Positions 33,001 to 36,000 of a stretch of 64,000 nucleotides of DNA are shown here, one piece after another; position 1 is the first letter of the stretch, and every line of letters starts with the position of its first letter. This DNA is from a cyanobacterium endosymbiont of Rhopalodia gibba (GTDB taxonomy: Bacteria; Cyanobacteriota; Cyanobacteriia; Cyanobacteriales; Microcystaceae). The position numbers were made by a program. Location of the stretch: NCBI GenBank assembly GCA_045159875.1, contig CP067995.1, positions 2,624,001 to 2,688,000 of the forward strand, in the 5' to 3' direction.

Positions 33001-36000
33001 CTTTCACGACTAATATTGAGCTTTTCACCAATTTTGGCTAAAGATAGTTCTTTTCCATCCTCCAGTCCGAAGCGCAAGGTAAGGATCATCTGTTGCTGTG
33101 GAGTTAACCCCTTCATTAAGTTTCTCAAGTCTTGGCGTAGTAACTCTTGGGTAATGTAGTTGTCAGGAGAAACACCTCGATCTTCTAGAAGTTCTAAAAG
33201 TTCTGTGTCTTGATTATCCCCGACCCTGACATCTAGGGAAATAGGTTGATGCGCTACGCTCAAATACTCCCGAATTTGGGAAGCTTCGAGATTTAAAATT
33301 TCACCAATTTCGGTAGGGGTAGCACTGTGACCTAGTTTTTGAGACAGTTCTCGTTGGATTTTCTTGATTTTGTTGAGTTTTTCAGTGATGTGAATAGGCA
33401 GGCGAATAGTGTGAGCCTGTTGGGCAATTGCTCGAGTAATTGCTTGACGAATCCACCAATAAGCGTAGGTAGAGAACTTATAGCCTTTAGTTGGATCAAA
33501 TTTCTCAACTCCTCGCTCTAACCCTAAACTTCCTTCTTGGATAAGATCAAGAAATTCCATATTGCGCTTCTGATACTTCTTGGCAATAGCAACCACTAGG
33601 CGCAAGTTGGCTTCAACCATTTTACGCTTTACCCGATTTCCTTGGTCAATGGTTTTTTTAAGGTTGGCTTGGCTAAGTTTAACAGCTTTTGCCCATTCTT
33701 TAAGACTTGGTTCATGTCCTAAGTCTTGAGTAAGTCGCTCTTTTATTTCCAAAAGAGACATCATTCTTTGTACTTGTTTCCCATATATAATTTCTTGCTC
33801 ATGGGTTAGCAGAGGCACCCGTCCAATTTCATGCAGATAAGTCCGCACCATATCTGCTGAGTACATAGGCTGCTTCGTTTTTAAGTTGACATTGGCAGTG
33901 GGCATTGGTACGTTATGGCTCCTTTAAATCTGCTTCAAAGTCTTTCACTATACTTTAGTGTTTTCCCAGAATTTGAGTAAATACACACGAATGCACTAGA
34001 AGAAACAACAAACGCGTAGTCGATATGACTTTTACTTTATTCCATACTAGCTTATCTGTTTAGGTGATGGCAATTATCAAAAAGTTTATCCCTAATTCAG
34101 GGAAATAGAGTGATTCAAACTACTTTGAGCAAAGATTGTAGCTATCACTTACAAAGTAAATTTTAAGTATCTATTATTTACTATAATAACGTAAAAATAA
34201 ATATGACGAAAGATTAAAGTTGATGGTGATTTCCGAACCTAACAAGAACTATATCCTTCCTTGCAAAGACTATCCTATAAAATTATTAATTGAGATAATT
34301 CACAACCAGTAACCCTTAGCTATTATTTCATATAGCTTATAAAAAGCATATTATTATTAATATAATTAATGATTATTGCTCAAATTTTTTTTAAAAAGCT
34401 TGATTGACAAGGACTTTAAGTAATTACTCGTTATCAACAGAAAATCAAGCAAAAATTAGTAAAACAAATTGATAGGATTTTACTTCGTAAACGTTCTTAG
34501 ATTTAAACGATTAACGACTAACTAAAAAACATCTCTCAGGTTAAATTTTAGAAAAATTTAAGCATTTAAAAATGTTCTATTCAATTTTTCGCTCGGCTGA
34601 TTACTTATTACCTATTTACCTCAAAAATCTTTTTTCAATTGAGGTTTAAAAAAGAAGTTAGCCCCACCTCTTGATATGTTTAAATAAAAATTGTAGCCTT
34701 AATTGTTGGTGGTTACCATCTCAGAGTTGGATAATCGTCAACTTTGTTCTGTTTTAACTTGAGATACTGAAAATAACAAAAGTGTTTTCAAATCTCGTCG
34801 AACTCATGTACTCAATCAAATGATATGATTTAAAAAGGGTTTACCCCGTGGGGCTGTGGCTCAGTAGGATAGAGCAAGCGCCTCCTGAAGTGTCGGGCAT
34901 CATGGACGGAAACGCCATAGATGAATGTGGTCAAATTCAAGGAAGCCTAAGTCTTCTTAAAGATAAGGTAATCTTGAGCCAAGCTCTACGTCCCTGGTAG
35001 AGAAGGTGCAGAGACTGGTTGTAGGTTGCCAAAGGGAAACAAAAACAGTAGGGGTAGTAATGTCTACAACACAACGGCCACCACCTAAGGACAGCAAATC
35101 TATGGTGAAGGAATAGTCCAGAGAGTGAGGAAACTCACACTAATCTGAAGCGCTAGGTCGCCGGTTCGAATCCGGCCAGTCCCGTTAATCTATCAGCAAG
35201 TCTCTATTAAACGGTAACTAGAGGGAGCATAATATAATATTATTCTAAGCGTTATCCATAATTGAGCACTCAATCTATAAACTTTTTGGTTTAAGTTCAG
35301 ATATGAGTTACAAACATCGATAGTTTATAGCTCATGATTAACTTTACTGTGAGTTGTTGTAAAGGTCTAATGACTTTAAATAGCGTTTCTCACTAAGGGG
35401 AAGATTGAGGTAGACCCTAATTTATTTTCTGTTGCCTAAAATTTAAAAAATTTTGTATTTCATTAGTATGCTTTACGGCTATCCCAATTAGTTCGATAGT
35501 TCTATATATTGTGTTCATGTTGTTAAAAACCAATCCTAAAAAACACCGTATAAAAGTCCTTTCATCTCGTTGGAAGTATAGGTTGTGGCCTCTAATTTCC
35601 CTGGTAGGTATTAGTCTGTGGGCGGGTTGTAAAGAATTACAGAGTTATATGGTAGAACCTGAAGCGATTTTCGTTTTGGGAGGACATGAAGAACGCGAAC
35701 ACTTTGCCGCTCAATTGGCTACTCGACACCGCGATCTCCCCATTTGGGTGTCTTCTGGGAGTCCTCAAAGCTATGCTAAAAAGATTTTTAGGGAAGCCGG
35801 TATTTCGAGTGCTCGCCTTTATCTAGACTACCAGGCACGGGATACTGTAACTAACTTTACAACCCTAGTAGATACCTTGAAAAAACAAGGTATTGATAGT
35901 GTTTATCTAGTTACCTCCGCTAATCACATGAACCGTGCTCGCGTTATTGGGGAGATTATTTTTGGCACTCGGGGGATTATACTTAAACCTATAGCCGTTG

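Follow-up and report, generated by a model that had tools for sequence, protein, structure and literature searches.

A group I intron of intact structure in the sole tRNA-Arg(CCU) gene of the cyanobacterial endosymbiont of Rhopalodia gibba

Introduction

Group I introns of subgroup IC3 share a compact core, in which tetraloops on P2 and P9 dock on P8 and P5, without P2.1 or P5abc. In the Azoarcus intron, which is about 205 nt long, L2 interacts with P8 and L9 with P5. A group I intron in the tRNA-Arg(CCU) gene of Agrobacterium tumefaciens was reportedly described by Reinhold-Hurek and Shub in 1992 and by Paquin and colleagues in 1999. Four classical types of bacterial tRNA intron are recognized, among them Arg.5Ug (IC3) (Williams 2020, preprint); the database cited in that work assigns each of the four to IC3. 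The intron of Azoarcus pre-tRNA-Ile(CAU) is an IC3 intron with crystal structures, according to the available portion of PMC3984707. Open genome papers on cyanobacteria name, in the sections accessible, only the Leu and fMet introns (PMC3610870, PMC5733544), and for Synechocystis PCC 6803 the tRNA-fMet intron is reported together with a homing endonuclease (PMC3073962, in part). Elements of 22-49 nt in tRNA-Arg(ACG), Gly and Lys, presented as "group I introns" in the accessible text of PMC5733544, were judged far too short for that class and a different thing.

The Arg.5Ug introns of Alphaproteobacteria (Agrobacterium; BbgpI of Bartonella) resemble the one described here in host gene (tRNA-Arg(CCU)), site, U at -1, omega-G, probable IC3 class and lack of an ORF, and the tRNA genes carrying them are likewise missed by annotation, as far as the available parts of those accounts go. 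They belong to another phylum, and homology with the Agrobacterium intron is proposed from the shared site and class name rather than from an alignment; the P7-P3′ arm and its variants with an endonuclease gene are reported here from cyanobacteria alone. Like ours, the Azoarcus intron lies 3′ of the anticodon; in both, three exon bases pair in a short P1, GAAA tetraloops cap P2 and P9, and P8 and P5 contain the receptors. It interrupts another tRNA, and the present intron is longer, with a longer P6a and an extra arm of about 53-56 nt. The tRNA-Leu(UAA) intron is also classed as IC3 and lacks an ORF, occurs in endosymbionts and organelles, and goes uncalled by default tRNA finders, but it is inserted within the anticodon (Leu.3Ug), its alignable part is limited to some 85 nt of the core (76%) and no extra arm is reported. 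The tRNA-fMet intron is similarly cyanobacterial and sporadic, and its intron-borne endonuclease is aimed at the anticodon region, as that of the tRNA-Arg relatives presumably is; in the available descriptions the fMet enzyme is of the PD-(D/E)XK type and sits in P1, whereas the ORF of the tRNA-Arg relatives is LAGLIDADG_2 (I-SceI-like) and sits in the P7-P3′ arm.

The split tRNA-Arg(CCU) gene

The window analyzed is a stretch of 64,000 nt from the cyanobacterial endosymbiont of Rhopalodia gibba, whose position 1 is position 2,624,001 of CP067995.1 (C1); coordinates without a prefix refer to it. Default ARAGORN called no tRNA between 34000 and 36000. With introns allowed, the program returned tRNA-Arg(cct) with an intron of 261 nt, and RF00028 (Intron_gpI; gathering score 50) matched 34874-35140 on the forward strand with 74.6 bits (E 2.7e-18), covering model positions 1-253 of 253. 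The claim of an earlier note on this DNA, that an RF00028 intron interrupts the anticodon loop of a tRNA-Arg(CCU) gene missed by default calling, was thus reproduced. The features are collected in Table 1.

Table 1. Features of the split tRNA-Arg(CCU) gene, in window coordinates
Feature	Position	Strand	Evidence
tRNA-Arg(CCU) gene, intron-split	34850-35184	+	ARAGORN with introns allowed, RF00028, direct reading
5′ exon (acceptor 5′ strand, D arm, anticodon stem 5′ strand, loop C-U-C-C-U)	34850-34886	+	ARAGORN with introns, sequence
P1	34884-34897	+	U.G in 42/42, flanking pairs invariant, loop freely variable
Group I intron, 261 nt, ORF-less	34887-35147	+	RF00028, covariation in 42 copies, intronless alleles
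P2 hairpin, GAAA tetraloop L2 34909-34912	34902-34918	+	compensatory changes in 5/6 pairs; GGAAAC invariant
P3 5′ strand GUGGUC, partner 35076-35081	34927-34932	+	100% paired, 1 compensatory pair
P4 (34937-34942 with 34972-34977) around P5/P5a	34937-34977	+	covariation, 42 copies
P6/P6a hairpin, loop L6 GUCCCUG 34990-34996	34978-35007	+	compensatory changes in 6/6 P6a pairs
P7 5′ strand G-(A bulge)-G-A-C-U, partner 35115-35119	35011-35016	+	5/5 pairs invariant in 42 copies
Extra arm, P7.1-like, between P7 5′ and P3 3′	35018-35070	+	4 stem pairs with compensatory changes
P3 3′ strand GGCCAC	35076-35081	+	covariation, 42 copies
P8 hairpin: CCUAAG 35084-35089 and UAUGG 35101-35105	35084-35105	+	covariation in 42 copies, invariant motif
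P7 3′ strand AGUCC	35115-35119	+	pairs invariant, 42 copies
P9 hairpin, GAAA tetraloop L9 35130-35133	35125-35138	+	100% paired
3′ exon (A37-A38, anticodon stem 3′ strand, variable loop, T arm, acceptor 3′ strand, discriminator G)	35148-35184	+	sequence, ARAGORN

The insertion point lies 3′ of the third anticodon base, between U36 and A37. The 5′ exon, whose last base is U36 of the anticodon CCU, gives a 37-nt match to intronless genes; the predicted ligated junction, CCTCCT/AAGC, is the sequence found in all eight intronless genes fetched, and CCTCCT/AAGCGC fixes the boundaries. The intron starts with G and ends with omega-G (35147), a base found at the intron end in 65 of 65 copies read. All 21 tRNA helix pairs are formed by the exons, and CCA is not encoded at the 3′ end.

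Arg.5Ug is defined by an intron in tRNA-Arg after loop position 5, with U at -1 and G at omega; the present gene, whose loop reads C-U-C-C-U/intron/A-A, fits this definition. The earlier suggestion that the intron itself would be new is therefore not supported, site and class being long known (Arg.5Ug, IC3; Williams 2020); the counts by phylum in that preprint may already list Arg.5Ug in Cyanobacteria. As the class is long known and common in cyanobacteria, the result amounts to a correction of annotation rather than a new type of element, and current understanding is not overturned. What interrupts the sole tRNA-Arg(CCU) gene is a group I intron of intact structure. Our overall reading, of the genome's only tRNA-Arg(CCU) gene split by an ORF-less IC3 intron of the Arg.5Ug class, with the mechanism and history proposed below, has in our estimate a probability of about 0.85.

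tRNA set and AGG decoding

Whole-genome ARAGORN found 39 uninterrupted tRNAs (Arg: tct, acg, ccg), and allowing introns added two, Leu(taa), whose intron is 225 nt long, and the Arg(cct) gene with its 261-nt intron. The spheroid-body genomes were published with 39 tRNA genes (PMC5638926, in part), the count that default ARAGORN gives here. Two statements of the earlier note held: nothing besides the split gene could serve as a second tRNA-Arg(CCU) in the whole-genome ARAGORN output, and tRNA-Leu(UAA) also carries an intron. RF00028 had only two matches in the entire genome, C1:2658874-2659140 and C1:684985-685195 (84.7 bits), each inside its own tRNA gene.

AGG is the least common arginine codon (6% of Arg codons), with 1057 occurrences in 738 long ORFs, or 2.9 per 1000 codons. 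It might be read through wobble by tRNA-Arg(UCU), so that tRNA-Arg(CCU) need not be essential.

Secondary structure and covariation

The proposed structure, with 87 pairs, was tested on 42 Microcystaceae copies. The pairs were formed in 96.7% of cells, against 32-42% with slid partners. Two-sided changes occurred at 33 pairs, compared with 16.5 ± 1.7 in shuffles, none of 500 of which reached 33. Compensatory changes were seen in P2, P3, P5a, P6a, P8 and P9; in P9 one pair had a compensatory change in 14 copies, and two pairs had one-sided changes. In P1 one pair of the five departs in a single copy out of 42 and the other four are invariant, as are all five pairs of P7; such invariance shows conservation but is no covariation test of these pairs.

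P1 is formed by exon C-C-U with G-G-G (34895-34897), the U36.G wobble marking the 5′ splice site; on the intron side G-A pairs with U-C, and the loop is AGUG. P5 contains CCUAAG (34946-34951) and UANGG (34964-34968), in which the motif bases are invariant and the single free position is A, G, C or U. We take this motif, together with CCUAAG/UAUGG in P8, to be GAAA receptors of the 11-nt type. Both GAAA tetraloops and the receptor bases are invariant across copies. In P7, G35013-C35118 is by analogy presumably the guanosine-binding pair. Set against the IC3 plan, the tetraloops and receptors are present but the arm between P7 and P3′ is extra. The minimum-free-energy fold (z -2.17) does not reproduce the group I structure, as expected for a pseudoknotted ribozyme.

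The P7-P3′ arm

The arm has an 8-bp stem (35018-35025 with 35063-35070), and AGGGA in its loop (35033-35037) is complementary to UCCCU of L6 (34991-34995). In per-sequence shuffles over 49 copies the L6-arm pairing is individually weak (median p 0.18), and weight is put only on the pooled tests and the variant classes. The pairing scored 4.32 against 3.98 for a reversed-arm control, so that the signal is partly one of G-run and C-run composition. The lineage-specific arm probably touches L6.

In relatives, the arm homologous to this one holds intact LAGLIDADG ORFs of 217-240 aa, whose last codons and stop extend into P3′ and P8. PF03161 (LAGLIDADG_2) was found in all four long introns tested (E 1e-33 to 8e-39). 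We propose, tentatively and at somewhat less than even odds for all its parts taken jointly, that the arm is a peripheral feature not previously described for IC3 tRNA introns and can take either of two states. Where the ORF is lacking, as here, an AGGGA-UCCCU kissing contact would help to join the P4-P6 and P3-P9 domains; in other cyanobacteria, the arm would hold a LAGLIDADG gene, the contact would be absent, and the end of the ORF and its stop would lie in P3′ and the P8 receptor. If this is true, the two states record the conversion of a mobile intron into a fixed, organelle-type intron, now found in two independent N2-fixing endosymbiont lineages.

That the intron is still mobile in this genome is a most improbable reading. 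The intact ORFs in the arm of relatives would speak for it, but the 261-nt intron contains no endonuclease ORF, its arm measuring about 53-56 nt; the two group I matches of the genome each lie in their own tRNA gene; and no family copy among the 42 is longer than 272 nt.

Occurrence in Microcystaceae and reduced genomes

Of the 88 other Microcystaceae genomes, 41 contained a full-length match to the 335-nt gene. Identities were 93-96% in four genomes of 2.5-3.1 Mb of the same genus (g1), 86-92% in three of 4.6-5.2 Mb of that genus, and 78-79% in three of 1.4-1.5 Mb of genus g3. Counts and identities agree with those given earlier, as does the statement that every reduced genome keeps the intron: this was so in five of five g1 genomes of 2.5-3.1 Mb (this one included) and three of three in g3. 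With introns allowed, ARAGORN called tRNA-Arg(cct) in 42 of 42 copies, with introns of 243-272 nt. In the reduced genomes all tRNA pairs form (21 of 21), as do 60 or 61 of the 61 intron pairs; for the present genome the 61 of 61 holds by construction, and its four nearest reduced relatives form 60 of 61 intron pairs, with compensatory changes. The sequence identities of 93-96% and 78-79%, together with the invariant core, indicate purifying selection.

In genus g7 the gene is uninterrupted at the same locus in 5 of 14 genomes, with flanks 82-91% identical to those of intron-bearing congeners, and g14 (16 of 17 genomes), g16, g17 and g19 gave only an uninterrupted gene or exon-length matches. 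The intron tree tracks genus labels (22 label changes; minimum 20, shuffled mean 49), placing g3 with g7 at 95/94 and one f13 intron inside family f1 at 99/97. A DUF218 gene adjoins the tRNA gene in several families. Shared synteny was rejected as evidence of vertical descent, since homing always lands in the tRNA-Arg(CCU) gene and synteny is therefore uninformative on descent versus homing.

Splicing

Related tRNA introns self-splice, as stated in the available part of a preprint on BbgpI of Bartonella bacilliformis. By analogy, the precursor would fold so that anticodon C-C-U pairs with the intron guide G-G-G in P1, placing a U.G wobble at the splice site, and GAAA tetraloops L2 and L9 would dock on receptors in P8 and P5, clamping the P3-P9 core. 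An external guanosine held in P7 would attack 3′ of U36; G35147 would then take its place, and the free 3′-OH of U36 would attack 3′ of G35147, joining the exons into the anticodon loop C-U-C-C-U-A-A. The sequence, the covariation-supported structure, the exact boundaries, the distribution and the ORFs of relatives are shown directly; catalysis (from characterized relatives), tertiary contacts and why the intron is retained are inferred.

Four RNA-library runs of one sample (X1-X4) contained all of the sequence words sampled, and they gave a single contig over 34400-35600, from run X1, of 4160 nt and unspliced; no exon-exon joint was present in the contigs over this interval, runs X2-X4 having contributed none. 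The X1 contig begins at 34482 after adapter-like letters, DNA carry-over is possible, and contigs are blind to rare spliced forms. This unspliced sequence would agree with an intron that no longer self-splices, either in a dead tRNA gene with AGG read by tRNA-Arg(UCU) or in need of a protein helper, as would the rarity of AGG (6% of Arg codons) and the accumulation of pseudogenes in reduced endosymbionts (286 and 225 in two spheroid bodies, in the accessible text of PMC5638926). We consider this quite unlikely, however: the gene shows no decay, its 61 intron and 21 tRNA pairs being intact and the closest four genomes having 60 of 61 with compensatory changes; identity is 93-96% among spheroid bodies and 78-79% to g3, with an invariant core; and related tRNA introns self-splice, as far as the preprint is available.

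Distribution and history

The range given in the earlier note, within Microcystaceae, proved too narrow: a 401-genome sample contains the intron in 14 or more further cyanobacterial families. Twenty-three further loci from other families were all called tRNA-Arg(cct), with introns of 204-895 nt, and named records with the intron include Nostoc, Calothrix, Fischerella, Trichodesmium, Planktothrix, Microcoleus and others. At least 119 stretches matched the 3′ junction pattern. All but three of the 80 titles listed among these matches name cyanobacteria. Two of the exceptions are "uncultured bacterium" contigs, and the third is a "Sericytochromatia" MAG, which was rejected as evidence for occurrence outside oxygenic cyanobacteria: the flanks on its contig are 68-84% identical to Microcoleus and Chroococcales contigs, and it is probably mis-binned. 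A plasmid collection yielded no match; in a phage collection the matches were confined to a generic 83-nt intron core, within DNA-polymerase introns of Bacillus phages, and to 33 nt of exon.

LAGLIDADG ORF matches were present in 22 of 119 among the pattern matches listed. Such ORFs in relatives, with exact presence or absence of the intron within a genus, argue for the history of a mobile element. The earlier note had called the intron vertically inherited. For the endosymbiont copy this is our reading too, and the intron tree follows genera; as a general statement it is countered by the g7 polymorphism (5 of 14 uninterrupted) and by the LAGLIDADG ORFs (22 of 119 listed). An ancient and purely vertical third cyanobacterial tRNA intron, comparable to that of tRNA-Leu(UAA), new to cyanobacteria and specially protected under reduction, accordingly seems to us unlikely. 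The tree by genus and family labels (22 changes, minimum 20), the DUF218 neighbor in several families, the presence of the intron in every reduced genome examined and the naming of only Leu and fMet introns in the available sections of open genome papers (PMC3610870, PMC5733544) are what such a history would leave. It is weakened by the uninterrupted g7 genes within flanks 82-91% identical, by g14 (16 of 17), g16, g17 and g19 with only uninterrupted or exon-length matches, by the ORFs at 22 of 119 listed loci, and by the f13 intron within f1 (99/97); synteny cannot tell descent from homing, and the class is a classical one (Williams 2020).

We favor instead a formerly mobile intron. Its family would be widespread in cyanobacteria, with a LAGLIDADG homing endonuclease still in the arm in some lineages; in the ancestors of the endosymbiont the intron would already have been ORF-less and would since have been inherited vertically, and selection for AGG decoding may have kept the ribozyme intact through genome reduction. 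The intron would persist through reduction because only exact excision leaves a working tRNA. That reduction does not remove it, as the earlier note put it, is correct in that all reduced genomes examined keep it; retention needs no benefit from the intron, since an exact deletion is required.

Significance

The intron's spread in cyanobacteria, wide but little discussed, provides a comparative set for ribozyme structure and the endonuclease life cycle, which includes endonuclease-bearing copies and congeneric presence/absence polymorphism. These endosymbiont genomes have more tRNA genes than they are credited with: here there are 41 genes, not 39, and the two missing from the default count are the sole tRNA-Arg(CCU) and tRNA-Leu(UAA). 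Studies of decoding, or of how tRNAs are lost as organelles form, would mistake the AGG and UUA decoders for losses. A selfish intron, on our reading, is not purged by genome reduction once its exact excision is improbable; selection on the tRNA would conserve the ribozyme instead.

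Features of the gene

The group I model of Rfam is matched in full at 34874-35140 of the forward strand, with 74.6 bits (E 2.7e-18; gathering score 50). ARAGORN with default settings found no tRNA within 34000-36000 and, with introns allowed, called a tRNA-Arg(cct) with an intron of 261 nt, which bears out the earlier note that such an intron splits a tRNA-Arg(CCU) gene missed by routine calling. All eight uninterrupted tRNA-Arg(CCU) genes fetched from relatives read CCTCCT/AAGC, the junction predicted on removal of the intron. Given a required U at -1 and G at omega (the last intron base), the predicted splice sites are unambiguous. 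The 335-nt gene has a full-length match in 41 of the 88 other Microcystaceae genomes, and the intron is found in 13 of the 19 genera, the same counts as reported before; ARAGORN called tRNA-Arg(cct) in all 42 family copies, the intron being 243-272 nt long. The observation is real and its location is right; the gene is well conserved, and the intron is predicted to self-splice.

Positions of the split tRNA gene, its structural elements and its neighbors in the window
Feature	Position	Strand	Remark
Exon 1	34850-34886	+	From sequence; 3' end is U36 of anticodon C-C-U
Intron	34887-35147	+	From sequence; first base G, last base G
Exon 2	35148-35184	+	From sequence; CCA not encoded
L2 GAAA tetraloop	34909-34912	+	Invariant in alignment
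Extra arm, 53-nt hairpin	35018-35070	+	Between P7 5' strand and P3 3' strand; insertion relative to the Rfam model
L9 GAAA tetraloop	35130-35133	+	Invariant in alignment
Sigma-70 factor gene	32919-33905	-	Other border of the 33906-34849 gap
DUF218 protein gene	35511-36107	+	Downstream of tRNA-Arg(CCU)
Glutamyl/glutaminyl-tRNA synthetase	36595-38046	+	After the DUF218 gene

The roughly 940 nt upstream of the tRNA gene (33906-34849) contain no ORF of at least 70 aa and may be a decayed stretch of a genome rich in pseudogenes. The single RNA-library contig (run X1, 4160 nt) begins at 34482, some 370 nt before the tRNA gene, directly after adapter-like letters that end in GGGG; this start could be a cDNA or transcript 5' end, or an assembly artefact.

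tRNA complement

Whole-genome ARAGORN gave 39 plain tRNAs, with tct, acg and ccg as the only Arg anticodons, and no second tRNA-Arg(CCU). Two more genes emerged only once introns were permitted: Leu(taa), whose intron is 225 nt, and Arg(cct), whose intron is 261 nt. The whole genome has exactly two group I matches, the tRNA-Arg intron and C1:684985-685195 (contig CP067995.1). The latter splits the sole tRNA-Leu(UAA) gene (C1:684911-685220, reverse strand, outside the window; 225-nt intron, RF00028, 84.7 bits), likewise invisible to default calling. This brings the genome to 41 tRNA genes instead of 39. Two spheroid-body genomes annotated with tRNAscan-SE were published with 39 tRNAs (PMC5638926); since this equals the plain-tRNA count here, both split genes appear to have been overlooked in routine annotation.

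Intron fold

The 42 family copies were aligned, a structure was written by hand, and its 87 proposed pairs were counted on the alignment. Standard pairs fill 96.7% of the cells, and shifting the 3' partners by one to three columns leaves 32-42%; both-sided changes occur in 33 pairs, versus 16.5 +/- 1.7 in shuffles, and 0 of 500 shuffles equaled the observed value on any measure. Compensatory changes are found in P2 (5/6 pairs), P5a, P6a (6/6), P8, P9, the extra arm (4/8) and the tRNA acceptor stem. P7 (all five pairs invariant) and P1 (four of five invariant, the fifth departing in one of the 42 copies) are conserved, which leaves no covariation to test, and every copy has the U.G wobble at the 5' splice site. 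CCUAAG/UANGG in P5 and CCUAAG/UAUGG in P8, which we take to be motifs of the 11-nt receptor type, are invariant, the sole varying base in each being the position that the motif leaves free. With the two GAAA tetraloops they presumably make up the clamp arrangement of the Azoarcus tRNA-Ile intron, whose tetraloop/receptor layout is the same.

Extra arm and L6

The 8-bp stem of the extra arm shows compensatory changes, for example GUUGUAGG/CCUACAAC in the genus of the present genome (g1) to GUUAUCAG/CUGAUAAC in genus g7. Within the arm's loop, AGGGA (35033-35037) is the complement of UCCCU in L6 (34991-34995). Of 163 genes gathered, sequence anchors located both elements in 95, giving 80 distinct pairs. 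Among the 66 whose arm lacks an ORF and spans 30-120 nt, L6 forms at least four contiguous Watson-Crick pairs with the first 22 loop bases in 54 and at least five in 32, and the partners co-vary (UCCCC/GGGGA, ACUCC/GGAGU, UUCCUG/CAGGAA, UCCUC/GAGGA and ACCCC/GGGGU, for instance). The mean best match is 4.32. Reassigning the L6 loops to other arms gives 3.61 +/- 0.10, with none of 5000 permutations reaching the observed mean, and shuffling the arms gives 3.08 +/- 0.09; relatedness among the copies inflates both tests. The reversed-arm control, at 3.98, counts against a contact, and tests sequence by sequence are weak. We regard a loop contact between L6 and the arm as probable.

Distribution

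Within the family, the 17 genomes of genus g14 gave no intron match: in 16 of them the match was confined to 37 nt of exon 2, and one had none. In g16, g17 and g19, all matches are to uninterrupted genes or are of exon length. In g7 the intron is present in nine genomes and the gene is uninterrupted in five (G014, G015, G021, G023, G025); in three of these five, both flanks are 82-91% identical to those of congeners that have the intron, and the alignment is interrupted precisely where the intron is inserted.

In the phylum sample, 64 of 401 genomes matched (E <= 1e-8), including 25/25 of family f3, 4/4 of f12, 2/2 each of f11, f13 and f16, and one genome of another order; some of these matches are of exons only, that is, an uninterrupted gene (e.g. 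G389 of f3). All 23 new loci fetched outside the family are tRNA-Arg(cct) genes, with introns of 204-895 nt. An exact scan for the 3' junction pattern, with one genome per species, returned at least 119 stretches. ARAGORN called the split gene in 98, and most of those without a call are about 400-620 nt, too short for the whole gene. Among the matches listed are Nostoc linckia NIES-25, Calothrix, Fischerella muscicola, Trichodesmium erythraeum IMS101, Planktothrix, Microcoleus, Moorena, Okeania, Spirulina, Prochloron, Crocosphaera, Chroococcidiopsis and the Epithemia turgida endosymbiont.

A contig titled Candidatus Sericytochromatia (L093, DATNQT010000672.1) carries a split tRNA-Arg gene with a 237-nt intron; its flanking sequence shows 68-84% identity to contigs of Microcoleus and Chroococcales, and the contig probably comes from an oxygenic cyanobacterium and was mis-binned. 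Genome G016 has, besides the full gene, a partial copy at a contig end (C201:2-106; first 105 nt, 90% identical), which could stem from duplication in the assembly or from a second strain. In G178 (C1:2026925-2027065) and G077 (C1:334433-334469 and 357118-357154), one half of the tRNA-Arg(CCU) gene occurs in additional copies, adjoining the intact intronless gene or 23 kb off, a pattern typical of integrative elements targeting tRNA genes.

Homing-endonuclease genes

Four introns of 832-895 nt in the 401-genome sample hold, on the same strand as the tRNA, an ORF encoding 217-240 aa, exactly in the extra arm, whose stem is retained around it. All four ORFs match PF03161 (LAGLIDADG_2; E 1e-33 to 8e-39), and solved structures gave a weak match to I-SceI. 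Three of these ORFs end within ribozyme elements: their final codons and stop (...TAC AAC ATA ACG GCC ACC ACC TAA) run through the 3' strand of the arm, P3' and the P8 receptor's CCUAA; these predicted 3' ends are coding sequence overlapping the ribozyme core, or "core creep". Among the fetched loci, the LAGLIDADG ORFs at L070:199-861, L071:866-1519 and L069:1597-2253 end so, with TAA within CCUAAG. L6 of 11 long arms shows no C-run, and complementarity to the arm not above 3-4 bases. Of the at least 119 junction-pattern loci, 22 have a LAGLIDADG ORF match (14 full introns of 846-923 nt and eight partial loci), including Spirulina, Laspinema, Phormidium, Coleofasciculus, Lusitaniella and Oscillatoria records.

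History and survival under genome reduction

A tree of 65 intron copies (261 columns) requires 22 changes of genus or family label, where the minimum is 20 and the shuffle average 49. Copies from the 1.4-1.5-Mb genomes of g3 group with g7 (support 95/94), and those of the reduced g1 genomes are placed with free-living congeners, with no finer branching order and no resolution of deep branches. One locus of family f13 (L053, genome G280) groups across family labels with L041 and L042 of genus g4, family f1 (99/97), which may reflect lateral transfer or a taxonomic labeling mismatch. The DUF218 gene neighbors the tRNA in g1, g9, g13, g18, f3, f6, f16 and f19; because homing always targets the tRNA-Arg(CCU) gene, this neighborhood cannot tell descent from homing. 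We read the record as vertical descent within lineages, both endosymbiont lineages included, over older endonuclease-driven gain and exact loss. Vertical inheritance, as proposed earlier, is supported within lineages, where the tree follows the labels, and is not supported as the whole history, given presence and absence in g7 and the LAGLIDADG ORFs.

The intron is kept in every reduced genome examined, where 60-61 of its 61 pairs and all 21 tRNA pairs are formed. The 738 long ORFs contain 1057 AGG codons (2.9 per 1000). Unless exact, a deletion would destroy the tRNA, and exact loss would normally require an intronless copy or cDNA as recombination partner, both of which an isolated endosymbiont would lack; retention would thus follow from selection on the tRNA, which would suffice with no benefit from the intron itself.

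Relation to known introns

In a survey of 80,413 bacterial genomes, Williams (bioRxiv 2020) names four classical bacterial tRNA intron classes, Leu.3Ug, Arg.5Ug, fMet.2Ug and Ile2.5Ug, all marked IC3 in the group I intron database cited there. In the same survey Cyanobacteria average 0.69 interrupted tRNA genes for each genome, the highest value, and introns longer than about 400 bp are said to be able to contain protein genes. By the definition given there the present intron is Arg.5Ug, a known class of ordinary mechanism and not a new kind, so the suggestion that it is itself new in cyanobacteria is not supported. It seems to have been little noticed in print: the Nodularia genome paper counts one intron (PMC3610870), another paper states that only Leu and fMet introns were reported previously in cyanobacteria (PMC5733544), and the open portions of the cyanobacterial literature name these two, with no mention of an Arg intron found there. 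The modest added interest lies in the tRNA under-count in these endosymbiont genomes and in the extra arm with its two states.
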